Numbered from the stretch's first letter, positions 21,725-58,973 are shown. The stretch is 59,150 bases of DNA from Nanobdellota archaeon (GCA_051819685.1 JBNJGI010000003.1:1-59150), one strand, 5' to 3'. Numbers and translations are program-made. The notes: generated by a model not told the origin, from the sequence alone.

Positions 21725-21768
21725 GATTTTTTATTTGTTTGCTTGTTTTTAAATTTATCTTAAAAAAT

Positions 21769-22006
21769 CCACATCAAAAAATGAGTGATATTGCGAACAA
21801 CTATTCAATAAACTGTTCCGGCACGCTGTCAAGGAAAACCTTTCGGCGGTTTCAACAAGTAGAAACTTTTAGTGCGGCATAGTCACTTTGTTCCTAGCCT
21901 TAAACAAGTTTAAGGAAAGTAGGAGGGTATAAAACCCCCCGAACAAGTCAGTTTGTAAAGGCAAATTATTTTGTCCGGGTGAACTTGATTGAATTTATTT
22001 GTTTTA
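21769..22006 (+). mobile_element. MITE-A copy A1: left TIR intact, interrupted by a 157-bp insertion, right half truncated
   Basis: The left end ...CCACATCAAAAAATGAGTGATATTGCGAACAA matches the A consensus. CCGGGTGAACTTGATTGAATTT resumes the consensus after the insertion. Confidence 0.7.
21822..21978. other. Unique GC-rich ~157-bp insertion inside MITE-A1; candidate structured ncRNA or nested element
   Basis: Flanked by direct TCCGG (21817-21821 / 21974-21978). Much more GC-rich than its surroundings. Contains the hairpin CCTTAAAC-AA-GTTTAAGG (21898-21915) and three AACAAGT motifs. Confidence 0.4.
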
Positions 22007-22178
22007 TTTCTTTTTCGGTTAATTCAACTATTCCAGATGAATTTTTACCTTTATAGAAAATTTGAACTGATTTTTCATTGGTTTCAGGGTTCTTTTTTAA
22101 AGAGAGTTCTTTTATTTGAGTTCCTTTTGAGTACTTTTTGTCAAATAATAGTCCTATATTCTTAAATTTAAGTTTCAT
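21966..22178 (-). CDS. Hypothetical 70-aa protein; C-terminal ~11 codons and stop lie in MITE-A1/insertion sequence
   Basis: ORF track. The last residues QINSIKFTRTK* are encoded by 21966-22001, which is repeat-derived. Confidence 0.4.
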   Translation of the reverse strand: MKLKFKNIGLLFDKKYSKGTQIKELSLKKNPETNEKSVQIFYKGKNSSGIVELTEKEIKQINSIKFTRTK

Positions 22179-22245
22179 AGAAAGTGTAATTTTTGTTAGT
22201 TTTTAAATGTTACTACTTTTTTGTAATTAACTGTTAATAATTCCA

Positions 22246-22353
22246 CTATTCTTCAGTTTCTTCCCATTCATTTAATTCTTTTCTAGATTGCTCTCCATAT
22301 TTTTTAGCATATTCTTTTAGAAGCAAGTCTTCTTTATTTTTTTTTGAAATCAT
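22246..22353 (-). CDS. Possible 35-aa small protein (MISKKNKEDLLLKEYAKKYGEQSRKELNEWEETEE)
   Basis: Below the ORF-track size cut-off. ATG lies 5 bp after the stop of the upstream membrane-protein gene, on the same strand. Confidence 0.25.
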   Translation of the reverse strand: MISKKNKEDLLLKEYAKKYGEQSRKELNEWEETEE

Positions 22354-22358
22354 AGTAA

Positions 22359-23099
22359 TTAAGCACATTCTATTGCTTTAACTCTTATTAATGATATGGA
22401 TAAAAGGAATATAAACCAATACCATATAATCTGGAATATATTGTTCGCTATAAAATTGAATAATAATAATTGGATAGCATACAGGACAGCTACAATTATG
22501 GTTATCATCAAGATGTGTTTTCCAATTTGATTTTTATTTTTCTTTATTTTATTGAAAATTTTTTCGTAGGATTTCAAAAGTTTTTTTTCATGGAATCCTG
22601 ATGCATGATACATTGTTATGAAATAAAAGAATTTTATAAATATCACACTAAGTATTATTTGATGTATGTATAAAATAAATATATTTTGAGGGAATATGCT
22701 GAAAATTAAATTGATAATTCCTGTAGTTATGAGAAGGATTATTATCAAAGGTATGTATACAAGGAATATTCCTGCCCAGATTGTTCTCTGCACTTTATCT
22801 ATTTTTTTCTGAGTTATCAGTTTATATATATATTTTCTTGAATAAACGAATATGAAGTATATCAAGACCAAAGCTATTATTGTAGCCAATATCATTTGTA
22901 TACTGCTTATAAGCATTATGTTTTCTTTCGGTAATTTGCTTGGATCCTGTAATAATTCTGCCTGGCTGAAATCTTTTATGAATTTGTATGCTTTAGTCGA
23001 TTTTATTAAAAGATTGTGAAGGTATAATATCAATGCAGATAAAGCTACTGCTATGGCATCAATACCCATCCCGATAAGAGTTTTTTTATAAGTCATCAT
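22359..23099 (-). CDS. Polytopic membrane protein, unknown function
   Basis: 246 aa with ~6 hydrophobic helices. 14-bp overlap with the upstream secreted-protein gene. Confidence 0.6.
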   Translation of the reverse strand: MMTYKKTLIGMGIDAIAVALSALILYLHNLLIKSTKAYKFIKDFSQAELLQDPSKLPKENIMLISSIQMILATIIALVLIYFIFVYSRKYIYKLITQKKIDKVQRTIWAGIFLVYIPLIIILLITTGIINLIFSIFPQNIFILYIHQIILSVIFIKFFYFITMYHASGFHEKKLLKSYEKIFNKIKKNKNQIGKHILMITIIVAVLYAIQLLLFNFIANNIFQIIWYWFIFLLSISLIRVKAIECA

Positions 23100-25104
23100 T
23101 CAACTGTACTGAATTTCCTTGTTGTTGTTGTTCCTGATTTTCTTCCAGAGTATTTTCTGAAACTTTGAAAGGTGTAGGAGATTGTTCTTCGTTGACAATT
23201 ATATTACATACTTCATCAGTTTCGAGTCCTTTCGGTGATCCCTGAAATCTTATACATACTTTGTCATATTTTTCTTTGCTGTAGAAAGTTATCATGTTTC
23301 TTTTGGAATATGTTTCAGTTTCTCCTCCTGCTACTTTTCTTGTGCCTGACCATATAGGTTTGTTCTGGGATCCTAATACATATACATTGTATTTCCATTC
23401 TGGCAAGGGTTCTTCATCCGCATAAGGGTTAGTTATGGAATAGGTTAGTTTGTAAAGGAATTTTGTTTTCTTTTCTCCTGTTGTTTCGTTTATGACTTCT
23501 GTCTGATGTGATATTTTTCCTTGTATTGTAGCTCCTATTGATTCTGTTCCTGAAGGGAGTGTCACGAATGCTACTGATCCTCCTTGTGCTAGTGGTGTTT
23601 CCTGTACTGAATCGCACATTGCTGATTCTATAACTTTTCCAAGATAAAGGCCTTCCATTTGTTTCTGGTATTCTCTTTTTTTTTCTGCTAGTTCTTCTTC
23701 TCCTATGAATAATGCGGATGCGCCTTCATATTCTGAAAATGTGTTCATTATATTTAATGTATAATCAAGTCCAATTGATAATCCCCCCCCAAAAAGATCT
23801 TCTCCTCCTATGTTATATTTATTTCTTCTTGCTGTTTTATAATCTTCTTGCGCTTCTTTTATCGCTTTCTTTTTTGCAGCTTTAAGATTTTCTATTTGAT
23901 CTTCATTTAAATTAGAAGCTTTTTCTTTTAATTTTCCAGCATTGGAATTTTTCTCAAGGTTTTTTATTTTATCTTCATCCTTAACCTTTTTGAAATCACG
24001 ACTTATTACTTCATCTCCTTCTTTCTCTTCATGCAGTTTGTAATAACCATCTTCCGTAGCGTGATAAATATCAGAACCATGTTCAAAAGTGTAACCAAAT
24101 TTATTTGAACCACCAAAGCCCCCAAGCCCATCCACAAAAACTATGTCTATAGTATCTTCATTATCGATTTTGGATAATTCATCAAAATCAAAGTTATTAG
24201 AATAGAAATTTTCATCAATATGAGTTATTCCATTTTCATCAGTGTGAATAGCATATTTATTATCACCATCAGTAATAATCCTTGCTTCACGACCTTGTTG
24301 ATCAAAAATTTTTGTAGAAGTTTCATCCTTATTTTTATGAACTACTTTTGAATAATCATCTTCACGAATTATTTCAGTAGTTGAACCATCTACATTCGTA
24401 ATAGTCCACTCTTCATTACCATCATCTTCACCAGAATTTTGTTCAATCTGAATTCCATGTATTGATTCGGCTGAAATCTGAAAATCCCTAGCATCATCAT
24501 TACCATTTTCTTTAATCTGAATATTTCCTCCACCCATTATGGGAGCCCCCGTTTCTTCAGCCAAATTTTGTAATTCATAATAACTTTTCGCTTCATCTTT
24601 CAAGCTACCCATTTCATTTTCTGTAAATCCTGATAAGTAATCATCCTCGCCTTCAGCAAATTCCATTGAATAAGTTTCATAATTACCATCATTATTTTCC
24701 CTTATATTAACTTCACCATCATCAGTTATTTCTGTGAATTCTCCTGTTTTAGTATTTTTTTCTAATAAGGTTTTATCTGATATAGTTTTTCTTATAATTT
24801 TTTCTCCACTAACAGTTAAGTAAGTTCCATCACCTAAATTCAAATCTCCTCCCATACTCATTTCAAATTTATTATCTAGATCTCCAGAAAATTGCATTTC
24901 TCCTATTTCAGTATTTTGAATCTTCTCAGCTAATTGTGTCCCCGAGATATCAAATTGCTTAACACTTTCCCCACCATCATCACTATCTAAATCAACTGTT
25001 GTTATTACTCCTTCATCACTTATCATTTTCTCAACATCACTACCATTAACTCCACCACAAACTAAAACTGTAATAAAAACAAATATAAACCACTTAAACT
25101 GCAT
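23086..25104 (-). CDS. Large secreted acidic protein, unknown function
   Basis: Start preferred at ATG 25104 (MQFKWFIFVFITVLVCGG signal-like segment), preceded by GGAGGT at 25112-25117. D/E/G/N-rich N-terminal half, K/E-rich middle, Cys-containing beta-rich C-terminal part. Confidence 0.65.
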   Translation of the reverse strand: MQFKWFIFVFITVLVCGGVNGSDVEKMISDEGVITTVDLDSDDGGESVKQFDISGTQLAEKIQNTEIGEMQFSGDLDNKFEMSMGGDLNLGDGTYLTVSGEKIIRKTISDKTLLEKNTKTGEFTEITDDGEVNIRENNDGNYETYSMEFAEGEDDYLSGFTENEMGSLKDEAKSYYELQNLAEETGAPIMGGGNIQIKENGNDDARDFQISAESIHGIQIEQNSGEDDGNEEWTITNVDGSTTEIIREDDYSKVVHKNKDETSTKIFDQQGREARIITDGDNKYAIHTDENGITHIDENFYSNNFDFDELSKIDNEDTIDIVFVDGLGGFGGSNKFGYTFEHGSDIYHATEDGYYKLHEEKEGDEVISRDFKKVKDEDKIKNLEKNSNAGKLKEKASNLNEDQIENLKAAKKKAIKEAQEDYKTARRNKYNIGGEDLFGGGLSIGLDYTLNIMNTFSEYEGASALFIGEEELAEKKREYQKQMEGLYLGKVIESAMCDSVQETPLAQGGSVAFVTLPSGTESIGATIQGKISHQTEVINETTGEKKTKFLYKLTYSITNPYADEEPLPEWKYNVYVLGSQNKPIWSGTRKVAGGETETYSKRNMITFYSKEKYDKVCIRFQGSPKGLETDEVCNIIVNEEQSPTPFKVSENTLEENQEQQQQGNSVQLNDDL

Positions 25105-25170
25105 CCTTATAACCTCCAACTAACAAAATCATTATGAACATACTTATTTCAAATGTTATTAAATTGCTTC

Positions 25171-25431
25171 TCATTCGTAAACTCTACCTCTGTGTGTTTT
25201 ATATCCACTACTTGATATATGTAATCTGGAACGAGGGCTAAATTCTAACTTCTCACAGTACCCTACCTTACTGGAAAGGAAGAATAAAAATATGAAAAGA
25301 AGAATGAATGTAATCAATGTGTGGGTTTTAATGGAGTTTCTTTTCAAGGTCTCACCTTTTGTAATGGTTGATATTAAATCTATCTTCTTATTTTTAAATG
25401 TTTGGATTGAATATTCAAAAATATTATTCAC
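25171..25431 (-). CDS. Doubtful 86-aa ORF with one hydrophobic segment
   Basis: ORF track only. Its 3' third lies in an atypically GC-rich patch with a non-typical amino-acid composition. Confidence 0.25.
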   Translation of the reverse strand: MNNIFEYSIQTFKNKKIDLISTITKGETLKRNSIKTHTLITFILLFIFLFFLSSKVGYCEKLEFSPRSRLHISSSGYKTHRGRVYE

Positions 25432-25519
25432 TTACCACTACATAACTCACTTTAATAAGATTATAATAACTTACCAAAAACAAAACAATTTAAATACTTT
25501 TTATTTAAGAAATTACTTT

Positions 25520-26149
25520 ATGAATAAAGAAAGTTTTGGAAAAGAATACTTTTTAAAAAGAGCGAAAAAAGGATACAATCACCTTATAGAATATGTTCCT
25601 TCAGTTATTTTACCTAGAACAAATGCGATAATAAATGAACTTAATTTACCAAAAAAATCAAAGGTTCTTGACTTTGGGTGTGCAAAAGGTTTTTACATTA
25701 AAGGATTTATTGAAGAAGGAATGTATGCATTCGGTTATGATATATCTCCAGAAGTAATTAAAGAAGCAAATGATTTTCTTCAAAAAAAAATTACTTTTAG
25801 CGATTTCAGTGAAATCAAAAAATTGTCAAATAAATCAAAATTTGATCTTGTAATGACAAAAGATACTCTTGAACACATCAAAGAAGAGAAACAAGAAAAT
25901 ATTCTTAAGAAGTTGAAAGACATAAGTTATAAAGTATTGATAATATTACCTGTTTCTGAGAAACAAGGAATTATGTGCGAAGACATATATAAAGATCCAA
26001 GTCACATAAACATGCATTCTGACAAATATTGGATTAAATTTTTAGAGAGATTTGGAACAGTAAAAGAACTTCATAATTTAAATAAAAAAATTAAAAAAGA
26101 ATATTCAACTATTTGTTGCACTTTTCTTGTAGAATTTAAAAATAGTTAA
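25520..26149 (+). CDS. Class I SAM-dependent methyltransferase
   Basis: Motif I is VLDFGCAKGFY. Start moved to the in-frame ATG 25520 (MNKESFGKEYF) because the upstream extension of the track ORF is hydrophobic junk. Confidence 0.65.
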   Translation: MNKESFGKEYFLKRAKKGYNHLIEYVPSVILPRTNAIINELNLPKKSKVLDFGCAKGFYIKGFIEEGMYAFGYDISPEVIKEANDFLQKKITFSDFSEIKKLSNKSKFDLVMTKDTLEHIKEEKQENILKKLKDISYKVLIILPVSEKQGIMCEDIYKDPSHINMHSDKYWIKFLERFGTVKELHNLNKKIKKEYSTICCTFLVEFKNS

Positions 26150-26187
26150 TAAATATACTAATTGTTTTATAACTTAAAATTTATTTT

Positions 26188-26215
26188 AAGCAATATCATA
26201 ATCATTTCATGTGCC
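26188..26215 (+). mobile_element. MITE-A relic A10 (degenerate solo right TIR)
   Basis: AAGCAATATCATAATCATTTCATGTGCC resembles the right TIR AAGGCAATATTATCACTCATTTTGTTGCATGTGCC. It ends 45 bp before ATG 26261. Confidence 0.4.
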
Positions 26216-26260
26216 AAAAAAAGTTAATATTTATAAATATCCTAATATAAAGAAATATTA

Positions 26261-26935
26261 ATGGATCCAATTGCAATCACTACAATTACAGAAATGATAA
26301 ATTATGTTCTTGAAATTACTGGTATTATAAAAAAATTAAGAGATAAATTATCTTCGAATGTCAGCCAATTAAGAAAAGAAATTAAGAATTGTGAAGATAA
26401 AGATGAAAAAAAATTACTTGAAAAGAAATTAAGAATCGAAAAATTACAAAGAGATATCATGAATAATGCTAAATCTGTATTAAAAAATCTTGAGAATTCT
26501 TTAAACAAAAATAAAAATATCCCGCAAAGAGGAAAACAAATATTAGAACTATTAAAAGAATTAAGAGATTGCATTTCAGACCTAAGAAAAATAATTTTTC
26601 AAAATATAGAACAAGAAAAATTAATAGGAGAATTAGAAGGAAAGGAAAGACGGGCAAAAAAAGCTAAACAACCAGAAAAAGCAAAAAAAATCAGACAAAA
26701 AATATATGAATTGGAAAATGCAGAAGTATCGGAAGATGATGAAGAAATAAGCGATGCAGAAACTGCAACTATAATATTAACAAAAATTATTGAAGGTTTA
26801 AATAATATTCCGGGAAAAAAACCTAAAAAATTAACAAATTTATTAATTGATTTCAAAGAAATTGCTAACTCCTCCGGAAGATTAAAAGTTATAGATAAAA
26901 AAAGAAGCATTGAAGAAATAAAAAAAGCAGCGTGA
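26261..26935 (+). CDS. K/E-rich coiled-coil protein, unknown function
   Basis: 224 aa with heptad-like K/E/L-rich sequence. No recognisable catalytic motif. Confidence 0.55.
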   Translation: MDPIAITTITEMINYVLEITGIIKKLRDKLSSNVSQLRKEIKNCEDKDEKKLLEKKLRIEKLQRDIMNNAKSVLKNLENSLNKNKNIPQRGKQILELLKELRDCISDLRKIIFQNIEQEKLIGELEGKERRAKKAKQPEKAKKIRQKIYELENAEVSEDDEEISDAETATIILTKIIEGLNNIPGKKPKKLTNLLIDFKEIANSSGRLKVIDKKRSIEEIKKAA

Positions 26936-26936
26936 T

Positions 26937-27749
26937 TTATTCTATTGAAAATTCTTTTAACACATCCTCTTCCATGAAATGTAGTTTTGAAGGTATAATT
27001 AAAGAATGTAGAGGGCCTCCAAATTTATGTTTCATTACTTTTTTTAAAGTTCCGTAAGCAATTTCCTGCTCATTTGTTCCAAGTCTTGCAGTTCCTATCA
27101 CTTTTGTGTTCTTATCAATTACTTTTTCTTTGTATTTATCTTCAAGATCAAGAAGTTGTTTTAATGCTTTATTTACATCCATAAAACGAGGTTTTAACTT
27201 CTTTTCTATTCCTTTAAGCATATTTTCCCGAGCTGTTTCAGCTATTTTTATATCAAGAAGAATAAGTGTGTGTGCACCTATGCTTTGATTTTCTTTTATA
27301 CAATCATAAACATTTCGGGGCATCCAGTTTTCTTCAAAAAATACCATCGATGTTGTTTTTCCAAACTTATACACTTCAAACCCTATGTTTCCCACAGCGT
27401 TCATTATAGAAGCATTATTTATTATATTTGTCTTAACACCTGACTGCTTAGCCCTTAATAAAAAATCAGAGTGTGTGGTTGCACAAAATACATCTCCTGC
27501 TACTAAAAAAGCCACTTCAAAATCTTTAGCTTTCGATATTATGTCATCAGACCTTTGTTCAACCATTTCTCTTGATGCCAATATGATATTTTTACCATAT
27601 AATTCTTCCATCTTTTCGATTGATGAGAAAGGCATTATTGAAGTATAATGCTCAAGATAAATATAATCGCATTTCTTTATTGTTTCCAATCCTTTAATAG
27701 AAATATCTTTCTCGTCACTTAATCCCAAACCTATCATGTGTAATGTCAT
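26937..27749 (-). CDS. dphB: Diphthine synthase
   Basis: MTLHMIGLGLSDEKDISIKGLETIKKCDYIYLEHYTS is a tetrapyrrole-methylase-fold Dph5 signature. 270 aa. Confidence 0.9.
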   Translation of the reverse strand: MTLHMIGLGLSDEKDISIKGLETIKKCDYIYLEHYTSIMPFSSIEKMEELYGKNIILASREMVEQRSDDIISKAKDFEVAFLVAGDVFCATTHSDFLLRAKQSGVKTNIINNASIMNAVGNIGFEVYKFGKTTSMVFFEENWMPRNVYDCIKENQSIGAHTLILLDIKIAETARENMLKGIEKKLKPRFMDVNKALKQLLDLEDKYKEKVIDKNTKVIGTARLGTNEQEIAYGTLKKVMKHKFGGPLHSLIIPSKLHFMEEDVLKEFSIE

Positions 27750-27792
27750 AATTTTTTATAAATCGTTTTCCTTTATATTTTTAACTAAGAAA

Positions 27793-27947
27793 TAGTAGAC
27801 GACATAAGATTGTTATATTTTTATATTGCCTTGCAGAAAACCCAGAAATTTGGCTAGACTAATTCTGTCAAATTTCGTAATAGTTAAACCATTAGTGTTT
27901 AATTATCCTGCGCCATATAAAATATACTTTATTTATGTCATCTACTA
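27793..27947 (-). mobile_element. MITE-B copy B1 (full length, 155 bp)
   Basis: Ends TAGTAGACGACATAAG ... TTTATGTCATCTACTA form 15-16-bp TIRs. The interior is near-identical (reverse complement) to 43988-44141 and 45300-45454. Confidence 0.8.
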
Positions 27948-27956
27948 AAATTCACC

Positions 27957-28110
27957 AGCATTTTCATAAAAATGAGTGATATTGCGAATAATTGTTAAGT
28001 CCTTTATAAGAAATTGATTAAATTTGCGCTTCTTTAACTTGTTTGATTTCTTACAGCAAACCCAAATATTACTTCAATGTAATACCATCACTTATTTTGT
28101 TTTATGTGTA
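27957..28110 (+). mobile_element. MITE-A copy A2 (154 bp) with a perfect 8-bp TSD
   Basis: Flanked by AATTCACC at 27949-27956 and 28111-28118. TIRs are degenerate at the extreme tips. Confidence 0.8.
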
Positions 28111-28155
28111 AATTCACCAAAAAATACATAAAGGGATTATTTTCTTTTTATTTAC

Positions 28156-28229
28156 GGGCCTGTAGTATAGTCTGGACAGTACAACCGGCTTCGGACCGGT
28201 AAACCGGGGTTCAAATCCTCGCAGGCTCA
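28156..28229 (+). tRNA. tRNA-Arg (anticodon UCG)
   Basis: Manual cloverleaf. Acceptor stem GGGCCTG/CAGGCTC, D stem GTAT/GTAC, anticodon stem ACCGG/CCGGT. Anticodon loop is CTTCGGA and the T arm is CGGGG-TTCAAAT-CCTCG. Discriminator A; no encoded CCA. Confidence 0.85.
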
Positions 28230-28310
28230 TTTGTTTTTCTTATTTAGAGGATTTGAACGAAGTTGTTCAAACTGGTTTGAACTCGAAGAATCTAAAGATT
28301 CTGAAGAAAT

Positions 28311-28865: not shown

Positions 28866-28952
28866 ACTTGACTGACTTCTTCTACATAAAACTATACTCT
28901 CACCCCTAATCTACACAATTGTACAATTTGATTTATAAATTTATTGATTTAG

Positions 28953-28980
28953 AAAAAACGTGACGATAAAAATCGTCACG
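28953..28980 (-). terminator. Hairpin plus T-run terminator-like element downstream of ORF 29084..29461
   Basis: Perfect 8-bp stem CGTGACGA/TCGTCACG (28959-28980) with a 6-nt loop. On the minus strand it is followed by TTTTTT (28953-28958). Confidence 0.5.
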
Positions 28981-30628: not shown

Positions 30629-30673
30629 ATAAATAATATTGTTAATCCTCATTTATAAATTTATTCAAAATCT

Positions 30674-30827
30674 GGCACAATCAAAAAAGTGAGTGATATT
30701 GCGAACAAATGTTCGTTCCTCCGGGCGAACTTGATTGAATTTACGCTCCTGTAAGTCGTTTTACTCCTTACCGCAAATTCAAAAACTACTTCAAGGCAAT
30801 ATTATCACTCATTTTGTTGCATGTGCC
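30674..30827 (+). mobile_element. MITE-A copy A3 (154 bp, best-preserved reference copy)
   Basis: Perfect 8-bp TSD CAAAATCT (30666-30673 / 30828-30835). The TIRs are GGCACAATCAAAAAAGTGAGTGATATTGCGAA and AAGGCAATATTATCACTCATTTTGTTGCATGTGCC. Confidence 0.85.
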
Positions 30828-33746: not shown

Positions 33747-33894
33747 GGTATATTCATAAAAATGAGTGATATTGCGAATTAATATTTAATACGGGTGAAC
33801 TTGATTTAATTTGCACTCCTGTAAGTCGTTCCATTTCTTACCGCAAATTCAACTACTTCAAGACAATATAATCACTGATTTTATTTTATGTGCC
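33747..33894 (+). mobile_element. MITE-A copy A4 (148 bp)
   Basis: Flanked by GAAATATC (33739-33746) and GAAATATT (33895-33902), a 7/8 match. The interior is collinear with A3. Confidence 0.8.
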
Positions 33895-35239: not shown

Positions 35240-35380
35240 ATTATCAAAATTAGTTAGCTAAGAAAACATTTAATCTATTCTAATTTTGAGTTTACTACAA
35301 AGCAATGTAAAAATAAAAAAATCCTTATCACTAACTAGATTATCCAAAAATATATAAATGCCTTACACAAGTATTATTTT

Positions 35381-37316: not shown

Positions 37317-37381
37317 TGGCACAATCACAAAATTCAAGCTTTACTTTAAGGCTATATTATCACTATTTTTATTTTATGTGC
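37317..37381 (+). mobile_element. MITE-A copy A5 (65-bp internally deleted derivative retaining both ends)
   Basis: GGCACAATCACAAAA...AAGGCTATATTATCACTATTTTTATTTTATGTGCC. Its interior matches the A6 subtype. Confidence 0.7.
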
Positions 37382-37428
37382 CAGATAATAAAAAAACATT
37401 TAAAACTTAATTAAATTATATTTTAGTA

Positions 37429-43788: not shown

Positions 43789-43831
43789 ACCATTAGTTAT
43801 TGATTTTTATTAATAAATGTTTTTGAAAATT

Positions 43832-43987: not shown

Positions 43988-44141
43988 TAGTAGACGACAT
44001 AAATAAAGTATATTTTATATGGCGCAGGATAATTAAACACTAATGGTTTAACTATTACGAAATTTGACAGAATTAGTCTAGCCAAATTTCTGGGTTTCTG
44101 CAAGGCAATATAAAAATATAACAATCTTATGTCGTTAACTA
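43988..44141 (+). mobile_element. MITE-B copy B2 (154 bp)
   Basis: TAGTAGACGACATAAATAAAG...CTTATGTCGTTAACTA. Near-identical to 45300-45454. The track ORF 43924..44124 lies inside it and is spurious. Confidence 0.8.
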
Positions 44142-44187
44142 AAAGAGAAGAACTTTTTTAAAAGGTAAAAAAATATCCGCTGGTTTT

Positions 44188-45135: not shown

Positions 45136-45256
45136 TTGTTAAAAATTATTAATAAAGGGATGTAATTCATTTTCAGGAGGAATAATATTATTGAAAGAAT
45201 TACTAACTTTTACGAAAATTAGCTGATTAGTCATTCTAATTTTCTGCTTTTACTCA

Positions 45257-45296
45257 AAGGCAATATAAAAATATAACAATCTTATGTTGTTGATTA
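45257..45296 (+). mobile_element. Partial MITE-B right end, tandem duplicate of the right end of B3
   Basis: 45257-45299 is identical by eye to 45415-45457 (43 bp). The match includes the copy-specific mutations and the 3 bp TTC beyond the element. Confidence 0.75.
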
Positions 45297-45299
45297 TTC

Positions 45300-45454
45300 T
45301 AGTAGACGACATAAATAAAGTATATTTTATATGGCGCAGGATAATTAAACACTAATGGTTTAACTATTACGAAATTTGACAGAATTAGTCTAGCCAAATT
45401 TCTGGGTTTTCTGCAAGGCAATATAAAAATATAACAATCTTATGTTGTTGATTA
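45300..45454 (+). mobile_element. MITE-B copy B3 (155 bp)
   Basis: Full-length copy in the same orientation as B2. It ends 43 bp upstream of ATG 45498. Confidence 0.8.
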
Positions 45455-45497
45455 TTCTTAAAGAAAATTTATAAAATATAAGTTCAATTAATTTTTT

Positions 45498-50224: not shown

Positions 50225-50270
50225 CTCTTATGTTGTTATTTAGATTTGTTTTTATAAATATTTTGTTGTT

Positions 50271-50305
50271 GTAGTAGACGACATAAATAAAAGGTATTTT
50301 ATATT
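50271..50305 (+). mobile_element. MITE-B relic B4 (left end only)
   Basis: TAGTAGACGACATAAATAAAAGGTATTTTATATTG. It starts 46 bp upstream of the GH15 ATG (50224). Confidence 0.6.
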
Positions 50306-50317
50306 GATTTCAAGAAA

Positions 50318-51968: not shown

Positions 51969-52027
51969 TTTAATTAATGTTATGAAGAAGCAGTATTTAT
52001 AAATTTAAGTTTTTAATGGCACAATCA

Positions 52028-52132
52028 CAAAAATAAGTGATATTGCGAGCCATGTTTCACTTCTTACCGCAAATTCAAAACTACTTCAAGGCAATATTAT
52101 CACTTATTTTGTTGCATGTGCCTTTTTAAGGG
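52028..52132 (+). mobile_element. MITE-A copy A7 (105-bp internally deleted derivative)
   Basis: Both TIRs are intact. Flanked by TTTTTAAT (52020-52027) and TTTTTAAG (52133-52140). Confidence 0.8.
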
Positions 52133-52296: not shown

Positions 52297-52620
52297 ATGT
52301 CAGAAGAACAGGAAAAACCAGTCTCAATTGGAGATGTAATAGATGTAAAAATCGAAGCCGTAGGAAAGAAAGGTGATGGAATTGCTAAAATAAATAATTT
52401 TGTTATTTTTGTTCCGGAAGCTAAAGAAGGCGAAGAAATTAAAGTTAAGGTCAACAAGGTCCTAAATAAAGTAGCTTTTGCTAACAAAGTAGAAGGATCA
52501 GCTAAGAAACAGGAAACCGAAGTTGAAGAAGAATCTAATAATAAGGATAACGAAGAAGAAGAGGATGAATCTGATTCAGGTAAAGAAGAAGAAAGTCCTA
52601 AAGATAGCGAGGATTTTTAG
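52297..52620 (+). CDS. TRAM-domain protein with an acidic C-terminal tail
   Basis: IGDVIDVKIEAVGKKGDGIAKINNFVIFVPEAKEGEEIKVKVNKV is the TRAM fold pattern. E/D/S-rich tail. Confidence 0.75.
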   Translation: MSEEQEKPVSIGDVIDVKIEAVGKKGDGIAKINNFVIFVPEAKEGEEIKVKVNKVLNKVAFANKVEGSAKKQETEVEEESNNKDNEEEEDESDSGKEEESPKDSEDF

Positions 52621-52675
52621 TTGAAAAAATTTATAAATCAACTATGACAGCACAATCAAACAGGAGGTTAATAAG

Positions 52676-52945
52676 ATGTTAAGGATGAAAAAAATTACCG
52701 AGACTTATGATATGAAAGTCTTTACTGACCAAGGTGATTACTTTGGTGATATTGAAGAATGTATTATTTCTGAAAATAAGGTTTTCGGATGGAGAGTTAA
52801 AAGTACAAAGAATTCCTACCTGGATAAAGTGCTGGGTTCTGCAAAAGGAGTCATTGTTCCACATCAGCTTGTTAAAGCAGCTGGGGATATTATGATTATA
52901 AATAAGACAGCAGTACCTAACTATAATCCTGAAGAAGAGGAATGA
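52676..52945 (+). CDS. PRC-barrel domain protein
   Basis: 89 aa. ...MKVFTDQGDYFGDIEECIISENKVFGWRV... AGGAGGT lies at 52662-52668 as a Shine-Dalgarno site. Confidence 0.65.
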   Translation: MLRMKKITETYDMKVFTDQGDYFGDIEECIISENKVFGWRVKSTKNSYLDKVLGSAKGVIVPHQLVKAAGDIMIINKTAVPNYNPEEEE

Positions 52946-53565
52946 AAGCTATAATTTTTGACATGGACGGGGTCATAGCGAATAGTATGCCCCTTCATGA
53001 ATCTATTTATTCTGAATTATTAAAACCTTATGGAATTTCTATAAATTCAAAAGATTTTAGAGATAATTATGCAGGAAAACCTATAAAAGATATTTTTTAT
53101 GAATTAATTAAAGATAAAAAGAAAGCTGAAGAGTTTGCAAATATAAAGTCTAAAAAGGTTATTGAAAGGATTGATGAAGTTATTCCTGTAAAAGGTGTTG
53201 TATCTTTAATTAAAAAGTACTCAGATTATCCTTTAGCTGTTGCTTCAGGTTCTGAAAAAATGATTGTAGATGAAATACTTAAACATTTAGGGGTTTACAA
53301 TAATTTTGATGCTATTGTTTCTAGTAGCGATGTTAAAAAAGGAAAGCCTGACCCTGAGATTTATTTGAAAGCTGCAGACATTTTGAACATCAATCCAAAA
53401 GATTGCATTGTTATTGAAGATGCATATAATGGAGTGTTAGCAGCTAAAAGAGCAGGTATGAAATGTGTCGGACTTGTAGAGGATGATGTTCCTGAAAATC
53501 ATGAAAATTTCCCAGCTGATATTATTGTTAAAAGTTTGAAAGAGCTTAATTTATCTTCTTTTTAA
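52942..53565 (+). CDS. HAD-family hydrolase (beta-phosphoglucomutase/phosphatase subfamily IA)
   Basis: IIFDMDGVIANS (motif I), VASGS (motif II), K...GKPDPEIY, IEDAYNGVLAAKRAGM (motif IV). Confidence 0.8.
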   Translation: MKAIIFDMDGVIANSMPLHESIYSELLKPYGISINSKDFRDNYAGKPIKDIFYELIKDKKKAEEFANIKSKKVIERIDEVIPVKGVVSLIKKYSDYPLAVASGSEKMIVDEILKHLGVYNNFDAIVSSSDVKKGKPDPEIYLKAADILNINPKDCIVIEDAYNGVLAAKRAGMKCVGLVEDDVPENHENFPADIIVKSLKELNLSSF

Positions 53566-53582
53566 TATATATAGTTTAAAAT

Positions 53583-54326
53583 TTAGTTTGCTAATTCTTT
53601 TTGAAGAAGTTCATCTATTCTTTGCATGATATTTATCACTTTTTTATTGAAGTCTTGTTCCATCTTTAATTTACTAATTTGTGTATAGTATCCCCCTGCT
53701 GATGCAACTTGACCTGCTGATAAGTTTTCATTATTTTTCAACCTTTTTTCCACCATTTTTTCGAAATCATTAAGAGTTTTTTCATTCAATTTTTCTAGTT
53801 TATTTATTTGTTTAGTTTTTTGATTATTAGCTTTCATGTATGTCTTTATAGATTTCGCATTAACTTTTCTACATTCTATAATCAGTTTATTTTTTGATTC
53901 TTTATTTTCCCAGTTTGTATCAAGTAGCTTAGAAAGAAGGTAATATAAGCTTCCTTTATCTTTTGAGCCAATCAGAAAACATCCTTCGATTACTAACCTA
54001 CATTCACTAAGACTCATTTCATCAGGATTATATTTTTTGTAATTCTGATAACTTAATTGAGAATAGCCATAATTATCATTGTTTCCGATTATTTTTTCTG
54101 ATAAGTTTTCATAATGTTTAAGTTCTTCAGGTATTTGAGTTTTATTTCCATTCTCGACTTGAATAATCTCTTCTTTAACTTTTTGTTCTACTTGATTATT
54201 CTTATTTTTGTCCTGAATTCCACAACCTGTTAAAAAAACAGAAATTGCAGCAATTTGCAATAATCTTTTTAGTTTTCTTTTTTTATCATTCATGAAAACA
54301 TTTTTTATCTGATTTTTTAATCTCAT
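53583..54326 (-). CDS. Putative lipoprotein, unknown function
   Basis: Signal-like N-terminus with the lipobox-like FLTGC. 247 aa. Confidence 0.5.
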   Translation of the reverse strand: MRLKNQIKNVFMNDKKRKLKRLLQIAAISVFLTGCGIQDKNKNNQVEQKVKEEIIQVENGNKTQIPEELKHYENLSEKIIGNNDNYGYSQLSYQNYKKYNPDEMSLSECRLVIEGCFLIGSKDKGSLYYLLSKLLDTNWENKESKNKLIIECRKVNAKSIKTYMKANNQKTKQINKLEKLNEKTLNDFEKMVEKRLKNNENLSAGQVASAGGYYTQISKLKMEQDFNKKVINIMQRIDELLQKELAN

Positions 54327-54396
54327 GCTATTTCTAATTTTAGGATTAATTAATAAATTTTTTTAAAATATAATCAGCTATATATGATTTTTCTAT

Positions 54397-54455
54397 TTTT
54401 TTATTGTCTTGCAGAAAAACCAGAAATTTTGGCTAGACTAATTCTGTCAAATATT
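54397..54455 (-). mobile_element. MITE-B relic B5 (internal fragment)
   Basis: TTGTCTTGCAGAAAAACCAGAAATTTTGGCTAGACTAATTCTGTCAAAT matches the B1 interior. Confidence 0.6.
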
Positions 54456-54462
54456 GACAATT

Positions 54463-54500
54463 ATAATAAATTGAGTGATATTGTGAAAAATGTTTGTTAA
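54463..54500 (+). mobile_element. MITE-A relic A8 (left-TIR fragment)
   Basis: AAATTGAGTGATATTGTGAAAAATGTTTG compared with AAAATGAGTGATATTGCGAACAAATGTTCG. Confidence 0.55.
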
Positions 54501-54538
54501 ATTGTTCCATTAGGCTGCTAAATAATAAATAAAATTAT

Positions 54539-55687
54539 TCAACCTTTCCAGTTTATTAAAGGTTTAAGATGTTTGATTATCTTTACACTTTCTTTTTGAA
54601 GATCCATAACATCAGTTATTTTTTTGTATGCTTCGGGAGCTTCATCAAGAGTACTTTGCTTTACTGTTCCTAATATTCCTTCCATGCTTTTTGTGAAATC
54701 TTTCATAGAAATACTCTCTTTCGCCTTTTTTCTGCTCATTTTTCTTCCTGCACCATGAGAAGAACTTTCTAAAAATTCTTTGTTTCCTAAACCCTCGACA
54801 AGGTATGTTCCATCACGCATATTTCCTGGAATAACTCCTTTCTCTCCTTTAGTAGCAGGTGTAGCTCCTTTTCGATGTATATATACATTTTCACCTTCAA
54901 ATTCACTTTTTATAGCATGATTGTGATTTTTGTTGGCCCATATTTCATAATTTATAGATTTTTTAAGAATTGTTTCTATACATTCTACTACATTTTTTGC
55001 TATTTCAATCCTATTCAAAAGAGCGAATTCAAGTCCGAAATCAAGCACTGCCAGATATTCTTTTCCTAAATCTGAATCATCTTGCAAGGGATATGTATCT
55101 TCAAAGTTTTTTTCCTTATGAGCGAATTTTTTCATGTATTTTTGGGCAACTTTATGCCCTATATTTCTGGATCCTGAATGTATTATTATCCATGCTTCTT
55201 CTTCATTCTGAGATATTTCAATAAAATGGTTGCCATGACCTAATGTTCCCAGATTTGAAGGTGATTTTCTTTTAAGGAAATCCAGAATGGATTCGTCATG
55301 AGGACTTTTTTTAAATTTATCAAGTAATTCTCTGAATTTAAGGATAGTCTCTTTACTTACTTCGGATTCTGAATGCTTTTTCCCTAATCCCATAGGTATT
55401 GTTTTTAATACTTCTTCATATATCTCATTTTTGTTTTTCGTAATATTTTCCAATATTTTATTTCCTTCTAACCTTACTGCAGTTACACCACAACCGATAT
55501 CATATCCTACCCATGCCGGAACTATCATTTTTTTTGTAGCTATAACAGATCCTATAGGTGCTACATAACCTGAATGTGCATCAGGCATAAGAGCAGCAGC
55601 TACTACAAAATCATTTTTCGTGCAGTTTTCGAATTGCTCTAATGTATTAGCATCACAATTTTCAGCAAATATGTTTATTTGTTTCAT
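54539..55687 (-). CDS. rtcB: RtcB-family RNA 3'-phosphate ligase (short form)
   Basis: MPDAHSGYVAPIGSV, DIGCG, HSGSRNIGH, HNHA, HRKGAT and SSSHGAGR motifs. 382 aa. Confidence 0.8.
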   Translation of the reverse strand: MKQINIFAENCDANTLEQFENCTKNDFVVAAALMPDAHSGYVAPIGSVIATKKMIVPAWVGYDIGCGVTAVRLEGNKILENITKNKNEIYEEVLKTIPMGLGKKHSESEVSKETILKFRELLDKFKKSPHDESILDFLKRKSPSNLGTLGHGNHFIEISQNEEEAWIIIHSGSRNIGHKVAQKYMKKFAHKEKNFEDTYPLQDDSDLGKEYLAVLDFGLEFALLNRIEIAKNVVECIETILKKSINYEIWANKNHNHAIKSEFEGENVYIHRKGATPATKGEKGVIPGNMRDGTYLVEGLGNKEFLESSSHGAGRKMSRKKAKESISMKDFTKSMEGILGTVKQSTLDEAPEAYKKITDVMDLQKESVKIIKHLKPLINWKG

Positions 55688-55741
55688 TCTAAAAGAGTAA
55701 ATAGAGTTAATTTTTTAAATTGTTTGATTTTTCATCTAAAC

Positions 55742-56224
55742 ATGGAAAATTCAAAAAACCAAATAATGGTTGTGGAAGATAAGGAGTACATTAGAAATTT
55801 CTTAGAAGTTGCTCTAAAAACAGAAGGTTATGAGATTGTTTCTTTCACTAATTGTGATACTGCTAAAAATTATATAAATGATATTAGTAATGAAGATATG
55901 CCTGATGTCGTACTTACAGATATAAATACTCCATATGGGAATGGAATTGAATTGGGGAAATATCTTTCTGATGTGCATTCACACAGGAATATCATTTTTA
56001 TGACAGGTGATAGTGAAGATTATGTAAAAAATAATTTCCCTAATCATCCTGTTCTTTCAAAACCTATACCTATACAAAGATTATATGATACTATTGATGA
56101 GCTCCTTAAAGAAGATGTTGAAGAGGACGATTATGTTGAAATAAGAGAGGATGGTAGCTCAGTTCATGTTAATCCTGAATATGCAAAAGATGATTTTTTT
56201 ATAAGAGAAGAAACTAATTACTGA
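55742..56224 (+). CDS. Stand-alone response-regulator receiver (CheY-like) protein with an acidic tail
   Basis: IMVVEDKEYIR..., DVVLTDINTPYGNG (phospho-acceptor Asp) and LSKP motifs. ATG 55742 is preferred over the track start. Confidence 0.7.
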   Translation: MENSKNQIMVVEDKEYIRNFLEVALKTEGYEIVSFTNCDTAKNYINDISNEDMPDVVLTDINTPYGNGIELGKYLSDVHSHRNIIFMTGDSEDYVKNNFPNHPVLSKPIPIQRLYDTIDELLKEDVEEDDYVEIREDGSSVHVNPEYAKDDFFIREETNY

Positions 56225-58683
56225 ACTATTTTGCTTTCTCCGTTTATTTTTTCTATGTTTATGACATTATCCACTATACTATCCATTTTTTGTTCATGAG
56301 ATACTAGTACCAACTGAGGTATATCTAAATTGTAAAGAACTTCCCTAACCTTATCAAGCTGTTCTGATGAAAAACCTTCAGTCGGTTCATCAAGTATAAG
56401 TATATCTCCTGTTCTTACACCTATCATTTCATTTATTATCCTGTTTAGAGCTATCCTGTAAGCGAATGCAAGACTTGTTCTTTCCCCTCCACTTAATGAT
56501 TCTACATCGATATCAATTCCATTTTGTTGTATTTTTGGAGTAAATGTATCGTCTATTGATACAAAATAACTTTCATCTTCTATTAAAGTTGAGAACCAAT
56601 GACGGAACTTGTGGTTAAATTCAAGATATATCTGTCTTAATACATTAGCTTCTATATTTTTTACAAGGGGCTGTATAAAATCTTCAATCCAGCTTTTCAA
56701 TGAGAGATGCCAATCATGTTTTTTTTTATTTTCTTCTTTTTTATTTATCTCCTGTTCAAGATCTTTTATTTGTTTGTCAACATTGTTAAAATCAGATATT
56801 AAAGCTGTATGTTTACCATGGAATTTATTATAATCTTCTCTTATACTTTTTAATTCTTGAGATTTTTTAAGGATTTCTTGTTTTTTTTTATCTATACCTT
56901 TTGTTTTCTGTTTTAGATCTTCAGCTTGTTTTTCGAGTTCTGAATATTTTTCTTCAAGGGATTTTATTTTTTTTATGTTTTTTTCAATGTTGTTGTTTTT
57001 TTCTTTCTCTATTTCTACCAGATGTGATTTTTTCTGCTTAGCAATATCGTTTTTTCTTATCTCCTCTTCTTTTTTCAACAATTTTTCGATTTCATTTTTC
57101 TTTTTATCGAAATCATATTCTTGGATTTTTTTCAGATTGCTTCTTTCAGTAGCTAATTTCTTTGATATTTCTCCATAACGTGATTCCATTTGTTCCAATT
57201 CTGTTATTTTCTCTTTTGTTGTGCTTAATTTAACTTTTATTTTATTGATTTCTTCTTGTGATTTTTTAAGAGAATCTTCAAGATCTTCTGTCTGATTCAG
57301 GTTATCTTTTTTTTCTTTCATTTCAGTTTTAAGAGATTTTATTTTTTCAGATATTTTTTCCTGTTCTTCAAAAGACTTTTTTCTTATCTTGTCTTTATGA
57401 TCTTTATCCACATCCTGATAACATGTAGGACAAGTATTAATATTTTCAATTTTAGATATCTTGTTTTTTTCTTCATCAAGATTTTTTTCTTCTGATTTTA
57501 TTTCAAGTTTAAGTTTTTCTATTGATGATCTCAATTCTTGTCTTTTGTCAAACTTTTCTTGTAATAATTTATTTTCATCCTGCTTTTTGCTTAGATTTTG
57601 CTCCAATTCTTTGATCTGTTTTTGAAGAGATTTTTTTTGATTTATTTTTTCTTTAATTTCTTTTATTTTTTCAGAAAAATCATCGATTTTATTCTTAGAT
57701 GATTGTAATTGTTCTTTTTTAGATGATATTTCATCATTGATTTGGTTTATTCTGGATTTTATCTGCTCATAAGTATAATCAAATGATTTTATTTCTATAT
57801 TACTTATAGTTTGCTTTATATTTTCAATTTCCTGAGATAATTTTTCATTATCTTCCTGCAAGTTTTTCTTTTCTTTTTTATTTGATTGGATTAGTTCAAG
57901 GGTATTTTCATATCTTGATTTCAATTGAAGTGTTTTTGTATATTCTTTATTCAGTTCATCATATTCTGATTCTTTTTCCTGTAAATTTTTATTTTTTTGT
58001 TTATCGATTTCCTTCATCTCTTTAAGGTTTTCATTAATCTGATCTTTTTTTATCTTTTGTTCTGCCATCACTGATTTTTTTTCAGTCAGGTCATGATATG
58101 TACCTTTAAGATATTCGTTTTTTTTCTTCAGGTCTTTGACAACTATTGTAGAGTTTTCTATTATTGTTTTGTATCTATCTATTCCGAATACTATTCTCAA
58201 GATATTCATCCTTTCTTCTGGTTTGTCAGTTATTATTTTTTTCATCTGTTCTTGTGTAGCATAAACACTATACCTATAGATTAACGAGTTAGTTCTTTGA
58301 TTGTTTGCATAATAACCTAGTATATTCAAGACTTTATGATTTATTTCACTGGGCATAAATTCTTCATTCTTTCCGTTTACACCGAAGTAACCTGGTCCTT
58401 GCGATATGCTGTTTTTATTTTTCTTTAATGTTCTTTTTACATAGTACGTATTTTTATTGTCTTTTAATTCTAATATTACATAAGCTTCATCTTCATCTAT
58501 CCTTAAAAGACTAGAAGAGTTATTTATACCTCTTTGAATACCGAAAAGAGCAAATTCTATAGACTGAAGTATTGAACTTTTCCCTGAGCCTATATCTCCC
58601 ATTAGTAATATATTGTCAGAAAAATAAATCTTCTGAAATTTATAGCTTCTTATGTTTTTTAGTTCTATACTTTTAAGTTTCAT
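56218..58683 (-). CDS. rad50: Rad50/SbcC-type SMC-like ATPase with a zinc hook
   Basis: Walker A LLMGDIGSGKSS, long coiled coils, a central CPTC hook (NINTCPTCYQDV), signature LSGGERT and Walker B ILILDEP. 821 aa. Confidence 0.85.
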   Translation of the reverse strand: MKLKSIELKNIRSYKFQKIYFSDNILLMGDIGSGKSSILQSIEFALFGIQRGINNSSSLLRIDEDEAYVILELKDNKNTYYVKRTLKKNKNSISQGPGYFGVNGKNEEFMPSEINHKVLNILGYYANNQRTNSLIYRYSVYATQEQMKKIITDKPEERMNILRIVFGIDRYKTIIENSTIVVKDLKKKNEYLKGTYHDLTEKKSVMAEQKIKKDQINENLKEMKEIDKQKNKNLQEKESEYDELNKEYTKTLQLKSRYENTLELIQSNKKEKKNLQEDNEKLSQEIENIKQTISNIEIKSFDYTYEQIKSRINQINDEISSKKEQLQSSKNKIDDFSEKIKEIKEKINQKKSLQKQIKELEQNLSKKQDENKLLQEKFDKRQELRSSIEKLKLEIKSEEKNLDEEKNKISKIENINTCPTCYQDVDKDHKDKIRKKSFEEQEKISEKIKSLKTEMKEKKDNLNQTEDLEDSLKKSQEEINKIKVKLSTTKEKITELEQMESRYGEISKKLATERSNLKKIQEYDFDKKKNEIEKLLKKEEEIRKNDIAKQKKSHLVEIEKEKNNNIEKNIKKIKSLEEKYSELEKQAEDLKQKTKGIDKKKQEILKKSQELKSIREDYNKFHGKHTALISDFNNVDKQIKDLEQEINKKEENKKKHDWHLSLKSWIEDFIQPLVKNIEANVLRQIYLEFNHKFRHWFSTLIEDESYFVSIDDTFTPKIQQNGIDIDVESLSGGERTSLAFAYRIALNRIINEMIGVRTGDILILDEPTEGFSSEQLDKVREVLYNLDIPQLVLVSHEQKMDSIVDNVINIEKINGESKIVQ

Positions 58684-58845
58684 TATAAAAAGGATTTGAA
58701 CAACCTTTTAATATTTTTCTTAATTTAGTCAAAGACAGAATATTCGTTATATTTTTATTTATGTGGGCGACTAATATAAATTTTGATAATTTTTAGTATA
58801 ACGAAAGAAATTCAATAAGAAATACTATTATTTTCGTAAATTTAT

Positions 58846-58903
58846 AAACTACTTCAAGGCAATATAATCACTTAGTTATTTCATTCTATTTATTTTATGT
58901 GTC
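58846..58903 (+). mobile_element. MITE-A relic A9 (right end)
   Basis: AAACTACTTCAAGGCAATATAATCACTTAG...TATTTTATGTGTC. A second TIR-like fragment, ATTTTTATTTATGTGGGC, lies at 58751-58768. Confidence 0.6.
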
Positions 58904-58973
58904 TTATTTTCGCTAAATTTAAATACTAGGATTGCAAAGAAAGTCAATTCAATATGAGGTTGATTTTATAAAA

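Follow-up and report, generated by a model that had tools for sequence, protein, structure and literature searches.

Two families of miniature inverted-repeat transposable elements lie at a near-fixed distance from the TATA motif of adjoining genes in a Nanobdellota archaeon

The stretch of DNA analyzed here (hereafter the window) comprises 59,150 nt from a Nanobdellota archaeon (GCA_051819685.1, JBNJGI010000003.1:1-59150; ~29% G+C), in which two short repeat families, A and B, recur immediately upstream of genes. Searches against Pfam bore out the gene names given in a preliminary description of this DNA, including rpiB, dphB (TP_methylase), 6PGD (gnd), SHMT (glyA), an RFC-like AAA gene (rfcL), and a winged helix-turn-helix (wHTH) gene, along with RelA_SpoT (the RSH gene), GH15, TRAM, and rhomboid genes; RtcB and gyrB were also found in the window. 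The single tRNA-Arg gene (28156-28229) was recovered by both ARAGORN and Rfam. The top non-self matches to SHMT were only 61-69% identical, and the named archaeal ones came from Woesearchaeota and Nanoarchaeia metagenome-assembled genomes (MAGs), which indicates a DPANN-type archaeon without a close relative in sequence collections. An exact-protein look-up with rpiB and glyA returned no record elsewhere.

Families A and B, defined by repeat searches and profile searches (nhmmer), are two families of non-autonomous DNA transposons known as MITEs (miniature inverted-repeat transposable elements), on every feature that could be tested. They are present where the preliminary description had put them, and their proposed identity is upheld by terminal inverted repeats (TIRs), target-site duplications (TSDs), and a lack of coding capacity. 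Family A is ~153 bp long with an 8-bp target duplication, its copies being 70-92% identical and some carrying internal deletions, whereas family B is ~155 bp long with a 3-bp target duplication and copies 92-100% identical. The A termini, GGCACAATCA..AATGAGTGATATTGCG, pair with ..GCAATATCATCACTCATTTTGTTTTATGTGCC as TIRs, while the B repeat, TAGTAGACGACATAA, is found at both ends. Perfect 8/8 TSDs lie directly outside the termini of A2 (AATTCACC), A3 (CAAAATCT), and a copy designated L005a (AAAAATCC), and 7/8 TSDs flank A4, A7, and L005b, the chance of at least 7/8 in this DNA being 0.0017 per copy. All three full B copies carry identical flanking 3-mers (AAA for B1 and B2, TTC for B3). No conserved open reading frame (ORF) was found in A or B, only short crossing ORFs that differ from copy to copy, and a profile of peptides from the A-crossing ORFs matched nothing among 5.8 billion proteins. 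Folding an eight-copy A alignment returned the TIR pairing alone, with no covariation (covariation term +1.05), and the tRNA was the sole match in an Rfam scan. REP/BIME-type repeats, which lack TSDs and are found mainly downstream of genes or between convergent genes, were set aside, since A and B have TSDs, convergent spacers are free of them, and every copy is upstream of a start codon.

Scanning a genome collection with an A-terminus pattern gave eight loci, with real elements only in contigs L001 (JBNJGP010000157.1; 4.1 kb) and L005 (JBNJGP010000132.1; 5.0 kb), where A and B copies occupy loci different from those in the window; over 78 nt, a B segment of L001 matches B2 and B3 at 100% identity. 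The two contigs have been assigned to a bacterial MAG labeled "Candidatus Muiribacteriota", yet they encode archaeal-type proteins (an RPA-like protein with DUF2240, NFACT, and an MBF1-like HTH protein), and seem to be archaeal sequences binned in error, from this organism or one very close to it. B had no match in metagenome or viral scans, A gave 28 chance matches in the former and four in the latter, and a B+A unit found no match by BLAST against plasmids and phages. In total, at least 10 A and at least 8 B copies or remnants occur in the window, with five A and two B more on L001 and L005; at least 17 copies lie within 68 kb, and the density is ~270-400 per Mb. No transposase is encoded in the window, L001, or L005. 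A subterminal motif, CAAGGCAATAT, is common to A and B at ~36-41 nt from one end and has nine matches in the window versus 1.8 expected, all inside A 3′ ends or B ends (27823, 30792, 33859, 43857, 44101, 45256, 45414, 52087, and 58855), such that the two families may have been moved by related transposases. Adjoining B-A pairs as copies of one composite unit were ruled out, B1 and B2 being 97-99% identical and A2 and A6 only ~72%. The copies in the window, with the distance from each element end to the start codon it faces, are as follows.

21768-21807, + strand: A1, 5′ terminal part (nhmmer, model ~1-42); 43 nt to rpiB ATG 21724
21973-22027, + strand: A1, internal A-derived part (nhmmer), past 165 nt of unique inserted sequence; overlap with a 70-aa ORF at the 3′ end of the latter
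26184-26215, + strand: A10, probable A 3′-end remnant (GCAATATCATAATCATTTCATGTGCC), below nhmmer threshold; 45 nt to ATG 26261
27793-27947, + strand: B1, full-length B, AAA/AAA flanks; 43 nt to dphB ATG 27749; 1 nt outside the A2 TSD
27957-28110, + strand: A2, full-length diverged A; 45 nt to the tRNA-Arg 5′ end
30674-30827, + strand: A3, full-length A, perfect TSD; 45 nt to ATG 30628, 87 nt to rhomboid ATG 30915
33747-33894, + strand: A4, full-length A, TSD GAAATATC/GAAATATT (7/8); 54 nt to gnd, 55 nt to glyA
35269-35337, − strand: partial B (model ~1-70), absent from the preliminary description; terminus 43 nt to KaiC-like ATG 35381
37318-37382, + strand: A5, internally deleted A with both termini kept; 43 nt to rfcL, 46 nt to ORF37429
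43834-43983, − strand: A6, full-length A with a degenerate 3′ end (start possibly 43832); 43-45 nt to wHTH ATG 43788
43988-44141, − strand: B2, full-length B, AAA/AAA flanks; 4 nt from the A6 end, 46 nt to ATG 44188
45204-45296, − strand: B′, older truncated B (model 2-93); followed by TTC, then B3
45300-45454, − strand: B3, full-length B, TTC/TTC flanks; 43 nt to RSH ATG 45498
50272-50306, − strand: B4, terminal 35 nt of B with the exact TIR; 47 nt to GH15 GTG 50224
52018-52122, + strand: A7, internally deleted A, TSD TTTTTAAT/TTTTTAAG (7/8); 49 nt to ATG 51968, 174 nt to TRAM ATG 52297
54371-54538, + strand: B5, old B with a degenerate terminus and nested A8; 44 nt to ATG 54326
58726-58773, strand unassigned: tentative mini-B (two B-like termini only); 42 nt to SMC-like ATG 58683
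58815-58903, + strand: A9, 3′ part of A (nhmmer); 70 nt to HC2-like ATG 58974

The two copies of the A2 TSD lie at 27949-27956 and 28111-28118. A8 is an A fragment nested in B5 at ~54448-54496 (B position ~78). The degenerate terminal 26 nt of B5 still align, with nhmmer model position 2 at 54373. The mini-B is weak, falling below the nhmmer threshold, with one terminus matching at three mismatches. The insert that splits A1 (21808-21972) is 165 nt of unique sequence with 41% G+C against a background of 29% and several predicted hairpins (z = −2.9 on the + strand). Rfam gave no match to it, and no further copy turned up in the window, L001, or L005; it may represent a small RNA gene or what is left of a different element. 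Beyond it, a 70-aa lysine-rich ORF on the minus strand (21966-22178) has its own TATA box at −32 and takes its final codons from A1-derived sequence; although below the 80-aa cut-off of the ORF list, it is probably a real small gene. On L005, the last codons and the stop codon of the MBF1-like gene (1967-2404) are provided by an A copy that extends over its 3′ end (2381-2404).

Distances were measured by script as the bases between an element end and the start codon (or tRNA 5′ end), using longest-ORF starts except for ATG 30628 and L001 ATG 1125, which are second ATGs, and for glyA, whose longest-ORF GTG lies inside A4. Across the window, L001, and L005, 20 of the 26 ends facing a start codon or tRNA 5′ end, with no intervening feature, fall within 42-49 nt (one at 42, seven at 43, two at 44, six at 45, two at 46, and one each at 47 and 49), the others lying at 54, 55, 56, 70, 87, and 174 nt. 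Ends on L001 and L005 (43, 45, 43, 44, 45, and 56 nt) provide independent replication. The near-constant spacing that the preliminary description had claimed is hence confirmed, and is stronger than stated there. Its manual counts were within ±2 nt apart from those for A7 to ORF51968 (49, not 59), A7 to TRAM (174, not 164), and B5 to ORF54326 (44, not 70), the last because the degenerate terminal 26 nt are now recognized as element. The partial B upstream of the KaiC-like gene and the tentative mini-B upstream of the SMC-like gene are additional cases. The one-sided truncated copies (A1, A9, A10, B4, the partial B, B5, the L001 B, and the L005 B) all retain the promoter-proximal terminus.

A 12-nt TATA motif, AAATTTATAAAT, is common to the upstream regions and lies at about −34 to −23 relative to the start codon. 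Its position was determined with a position weight matrix (PWM) built solely from element-free promoters and relatives, avoiding circularity; a Gibbs de novo motif run was noisy, yet in agreement at most sites. With the independent PWM, each of the eight clear B ends has the first base of the TATA 12-mer at +11, the tentative mini-B having it at +10. At those B ends the TATA-to-start distance varies from 21 to 25 nt, hence the variation within 42-47 nt lies wholly on the start-codon side. Among 15 A ends, the 12-mer begins at +12 in eight, at +14 in two, and at +7 in one, with four unclear. Both A7 (49 nt) and L005 g2601 (56 nt, with an AGGGG Shine-Dalgarno sequence) are still at +12, the longer distance being due to a longer 5′ region. 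A TATA-like sequence is also found at +12 from A9 (AAATTTAAATAC) and at +11 on the gnd side of A4, where the independent PWM prefers other sites; both are tentative. The TATA columns hold 6.8 bits of information when anchored on the element end versus 5.4 when anchored on the start codon. The invariant is therefore the distance to the TATA motif (10 nt for B, 11 nt for A), rather than that to the start codon. The TATA motifs assigned to elements in the window are listed below.

21745-21756, − strand: TATA of rpiB, +12 from A1
26227-26238, + strand: TATA of ORF26261, +12 from A10
27771-27782, − strand: TATA of dphB, +11 from B1
28122-28133, + strand: TATA of tRNA-Arg, +12 from A2; 22 nt separate it from the mature 5′ end
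30651-30662, − strand: TATA of ORF30628, +12 from A3; its 3′ edge makes the spurious ATG 30652
35348-35359, + strand: TATA of the KaiC-like gene, +11 from the partial B
37396-37407, + strand: TATA of ORF37429, +14 from A5
43809-43820, − strand: TATA of the wHTH gene, +12 to +14 from A6
44152-44163, + strand: TATA of ORF44188, +11 from B2
45465-45476, + strand: TATA of the RSH gene, +11 from B3
50250-50261, − strand: TATA of GH15, +11 from B4
51995-52006, − strand: TATA of ORF51968, +12 from A7
54349-54360, − strand: TATA of ORF54326, +11 from B5
58705-58716, − strand: TATA of the SMC-like gene, +10 from the tentative mini-B

The start-codon distance is near-constant because, in most genes here, 20-26 nt separate the end of the TATA 12-mer from the start codon. 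This geometry also occurs at element-free promoters (gyrB, ORF32080, ORF21221, and an L005 gene) and in L037 and L038, two AT-rich, MITE-free Woesearchaeota-like relatives. A TATA box at about −34 to −23 from the start codon is in the usual archaeal place when transcription begins at or next to the start codon, archaeal TATA boxes being centered ~26-28 nt upstream of the transcription start. Judged by this geometry, leaderless transcription appears to apply to the majority of genes here, and AAATTTATAAAT is likely to be an active TATA box. Leaderless mRNAs are the majority in several archaea (PMC4983044). The suggestion that element spacing can predict start codons held for the gene downstream of A3: ATG 30652, only 21 nt from A3, is contributed by TTTATAAATG, the 3′ edge of the TATA box, while ATG 30628 has a canonical TATA box at −34 to −23. 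The same spurious in-frame upstream ATG, again TTTATAAATG from a TATA box, occurs at an unrelated L001 gene (ATG 1149 versus 1125), with the likely true start 24 nt downstream in both cases (window 30650-30662; L001 1147-1160).

Three further promoters touch on this geometry. For the tRNA-Arg gene (28122-28229 with its TATA box), the 22 nt between TATA box and mature 5′ end match the leaderless protein-gene geometry, such that the tRNA may be transcribed with little or no 5′ leader. A tRNA without a 5′ leader, or with a short one, is also found in Nanoarchaeum. GH15 has two start options, either GTG 50224, 25 nt past the TATA motif (leaderless geometry), or ATG 50218, preceded by AAGAGGTG. In the MITE-free promoter of a flagellin-like gene, the TATA box is ~66-77 nt from the start codon, hence this gene has a leader; 9 nt upstream of that TATA box, on the minus strand (28953-28980), is a perfect hairpin, CGTGACGAT-TTTT-ATCGTCACG, followed by T6.

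The 10 nt between element end and TATA box share no sequence among copies, which, together with the TSDs abutting the termini, identifies the promoter as host DNA. This bears on whether the elements carry outward promoters of their own, as Correia-like elements do, or whether the 43-nt flank belongs to the element, an explanation that we regard as very improbable. B does have an outward TATA-like sequence, CAATATAAAAAT, ending 24 nt before its position-1 terminus (PWM score 6.6), but in DNA this AT-rich such a score is expected by chance ~1-2 times per element (5.6 matches per 1000 positions at a score of at least 5), A2, A3, and A6 have no TATA match, the host TATA box lies outside a TSD that directly abuts the TIR, and the identical TATA geometry recurs at promoters that lack elements, here and in relatives. 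The 43-nt flank as a part of the element was ruled out; TSDs adjoin the TIRs and the flanks have only the TATA motif in common.

Whether the elements have instead been kept for a function, through insulating promoters, stopping read-through, or binding a regulator or chromatin protein, was also considered. Both element ends read outward through a T4-T6 run, a possible read-through stop, and the flagellin-like promoter, itself element-free, has its hairpin and T6 at the equivalent position. Between 21.7 and 59 kb, elements occupy 13 of the 20 spacers that bear a promoter (~two thirds), A interiors are avoided by B insertions, and the promoter-proximal terminus is held by every one-sided truncated copy. 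However, such retention is expected from geometry alone, distal deletions having far more room than those in a 10-nt slot; A and B end sequences differ, so no common upstream motif faces the promoter; the copies decay freely, those of A being only 70-80% identical, with internal deletions and no covariation beyond TIR pairing; and seven promoters in the region, along with all promoters in the relatives, lack an element. We consider such exaptation improbable, and the earlier proposal that the elements contribute upstream regulatory sequence found no positive support: the 10-nt flanks are unconserved, A has no outward promoter, the B match is at chance level, and no RNA covariation was detected.

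Survival is a more serious contender. If elements inserted at random and survivors were confined to positions just outside the footprint of the TFB recognition element (BRE) and TATA box, they would trace the minimal promoter. With each element and one TSD copy removed, the reconstructed pre-insertion spacers are 48-57 nt between tandem genes and 81-101 nt between most divergent pairs, in good agreement with the ~90-100 bp proposed in the preliminary description for ancestral divergent spacers; in the MITE-free relatives, where neither A nor B is present, they are 49-68 nt and 95-150 nt, respectively. With spacers little longer than promoters, many insertions had almost no positional choice, and a 42-nt exclusion zone around start codons leaves half of the spacers with 7 or fewer free positions. 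Consistent with purging of harmful insertions, no element interrupts a gene, the L005 copy at 2381-2404 replacing only last codons.

Compared with randomized intergenic placement, the distance spread was far from random. Uniform placement within each of 17 spacers put an end at 42-47 nt in a mean of 1.4 spacers versus 14 observed, a count reached in 0 of 20,000 simulations. Even under a hard 42-nt exclusion zone, 8.9 of 17 were expected (P = 0.002). The canonical offset was used where alternatives were available, with ~35 spare positions for A3, ~86 for A7, and ~70 for B3, and all eight clear B ends nevertheless share one offset, as do eight A ends at +12. In A3 and A7 only one of the two ends is anchored, which is what positioning by a single promoter would produce. 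Convergent spacers have no element, although they total only ~150 nt and are weak evidence.

Nested and adjoining insertions provide a finer comparison. Given its intact TSD, A2 was originally at +12 from the tRNA TATA box and at +17 from that of dphB; the young B1 then entered the 6-nt slot between A2 and the dphB TATA box at exactly +11, rather than the 154-nt A2. Likewise, B2, only 4 nt away from A6 and with the TATA box of ORF44188 at +11, was not inserted into the 150-nt A6. Young B copies (97-100% identical to one another) have landed three times in all in a slot of 8 nt or fewer beside a TATA box, twice bypassing an adjoining older A (~72% identical). The arrangement B′-TTC-B3-TTC (45204-45457) is the footprint expected of two B hits on one 3-nt target. 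The last 44 nt of B′ and B3 are identical and share an unusual terminus, GTTGTTGATTA; outside these 44 nt, B3 matches B2 at 100% identity over 110 nt. This pattern suggests that the target was hit again and that gene conversion also took place, which complicates the case. Across 14 insertion events, 12 fall within ±1 of the canonical offset versus 7.6 expected when older MITE DNA is not counted as available (P = 0.001), and 6.1 when it is (P = 5e-6).

Survival alone, although clearly part of the truth, does not seem to account for the single-base register or for placement where spare DNA existed (P ~0.001-0.002 even under a conservative null), and as the whole explanation we rate it possible but doubtful. 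The single-base register is more readily read as site choice than as selection. Insertion positioned relative to the TATA/BRE, with selection then filtering, is the best-supported reading, and one to which we give an even chance. Of the alternatives in the preliminary description, the promoter footprint was right and is now sharpened, the constant being the end-to-TATA distance and the start-codon distance following from leaderless geometry. Integration targeted to promoter-bound initiation complexes gains support as far as promoter-positioned insertion is concerned, with either a bound initiation complex or the DNA sequence as the possible cue.

Under positioned insertion, the 42-47 nt would be the sum of two constants, namely the end-to-TATA distance (10 nt for B, 11 nt for A) and a TATA-to-start distance of 20-26 nt, with the target duplication and the BRE position filling the gap between element end and TATA box. 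The first constant would be set at integration, when a transposase or its partner positions a staggered cut a set number of bases from the TATA/BRE; the TATA/BRE sequence itself, its bent shape, or bound TBP/TFB could serve as the cue. Selection would then purge insertions that break genes or promoters and, in a genome with spacers barely longer than promoters, elements would remain in about two thirds of those bearing a promoter. A more specific version, in which the A and B transposases are tethered to promoter-bound TBP/TFB or read the DNA shape that this produces, cutting 10-11 nt upstream of the TATA box, is unlikely on present evidence.

Several observations weigh against positioned insertion. 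Some ends fit the offset poorly, including A4 on the glyA side (TATA at +24), L001a (+7), and a solo B terminus on L005 (~+20). Most pre-insertion spacers were near minimal, such that selection alone predicts much of the clustering. Despite different TSD sizes, A and B keep nearly equal upstream DNA (11 and 10 nt), as a sharp functional boundary under selection would also predict. The test on 14 events rests on an assumption about which DNA is dispensable, and terminators or unrecognized sites could shrink the slack. Insertion into older MITEs might be disfavored for other reasons, e.g., target immunity, given that A and B share CAAGGCAATAT. Furthermore, A is found at one B-centre site (TCAAATTTCG, B position ~78) in three B copies and in both orientations (window 54448, L001 3957-3958, and L005 ~53), with no good TATA box alongside, hence A also has some sequence preference; such recurrence suggests either a hot spot for A defined by sequence or a composite B::A subfamily. 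Finally, the full data set is a small sample, 68 kb from one organism (the window plus L001 and L005), with genome and metagenome scans yielding just these two extra contigs with elements.

Outside the element-rich region, positions 1-21221 of the window hold ~20 genes, all on one strand with very short or overlapping spacers, and no A or B copies. G+C drops to 16-24% in parts of this segment, which also contains a pair of similar upstream regions (7377-7446 and 8322-8391) and a 136-nt direct repeat (3547-3682 and 3869-4004). The last gene (58974-59150), encoding a lysine/alanine-rich HC2 (histone H1-like) protein with 15-nt tandem repeats, runs past the window end.

If the register reflects site choice, this would be a prokaryotic transposon positioned by the basal archaeal promoter, in parallel to eukaryotic retroelements that use TBP-containing factors; to our knowledge, no earlier case has been described. 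Were TBP/TFB tethering true, A and B would be the counterpart, among archaeal DNA transposons, of TFIIIB-targeted Ty3 and TRE5-A, and initiation-complex-directed "safe haven" integration would also have arisen in a compact-genome prokaryote. If only selection is at work, the elements would mark, base by base, the upstream DNA needed by an archaeal promoter, ~10 nt beyond the TATA box or ~−45 from the start codon. Either way, the spacing provides a rule for uncultured DPANN archaea that locates promoters, flags leaderless genes, and corrects starts (30628 for 30652), and the occupied spacers show the extent to which MITEs can saturate a small genome.

Like other prokaryotic MITEs (those of Sulfolobus and haloarchaea, and those in the cMITE survey, PMC11602168), A and B are short, non-coding, TIR-bounded, TSD-flanked, multicopy, and intergenic. 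In that survey a Woesearchaeal genome was among the archaea densest in MITEs at 105 per Mb (PMC11602168), compared with ~270-400 per Mb here, where the elements are, in addition, spaced a constant 10-11 nt away from a TATA box; the phrases "start codon" and "upstream of" are both absent from the survey text. Correia elements of Neisseria (cited in PMC11602168) are likewise abundant, MITE-like, and gene-adjacent, and can affect transcription. However, those bring promoters and IHF sites, whereas the promoter here is outside both element and TSD. Our search of the literature found no report of TATA-anchored transposons in archaea.

Rice mPing, the P element, and Schizosaccharomyces pombe Tf1 favor sites immediately upstream of genes and spare coding sequence, but their preference is regional (tens to hundreds of bp), compared with a register of ±1 nt to the TATA box here. 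Site-preferring insertion sequences (hot-spot and inverted-repeat targeting of the IS30 type, and the REP-targeting IS1397 and ISKpn1) hit one nucleotide position relative to a recurrent motif. They resemble A and B in repeated same-position insertion and in tandem element-TSD-element arrangements, the difference being that the recurrent motif here is the basal promoter itself.

Yeast Ty3 targets Pol III start sites via TFIIIB, and Dictyostelium TRE5-A inserts ~48 bp upstream of tRNA genes. TBP and Brf1/TFIIB have archaeal homologues in TBP and TFB, respectively. Unlike these retrotransposons, A and B are DNA transposons (TIR and TSD) in an archaeon with a single RNA polymerase, they also lie upstream of protein-coding genes, and their putative targeting is deduced from position in the sequence. 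The likeness is one of a fixed short distance from where a TBP-containing initiation complex would assemble and of a "safe haven" in a gene-dense genome, and extends to one copy here that lies 45 nt upstream of a tRNA gene. Ty3 and TRE5-A are thus the closest functional analogues of A and B, in likeness of behavior rather than in membership.

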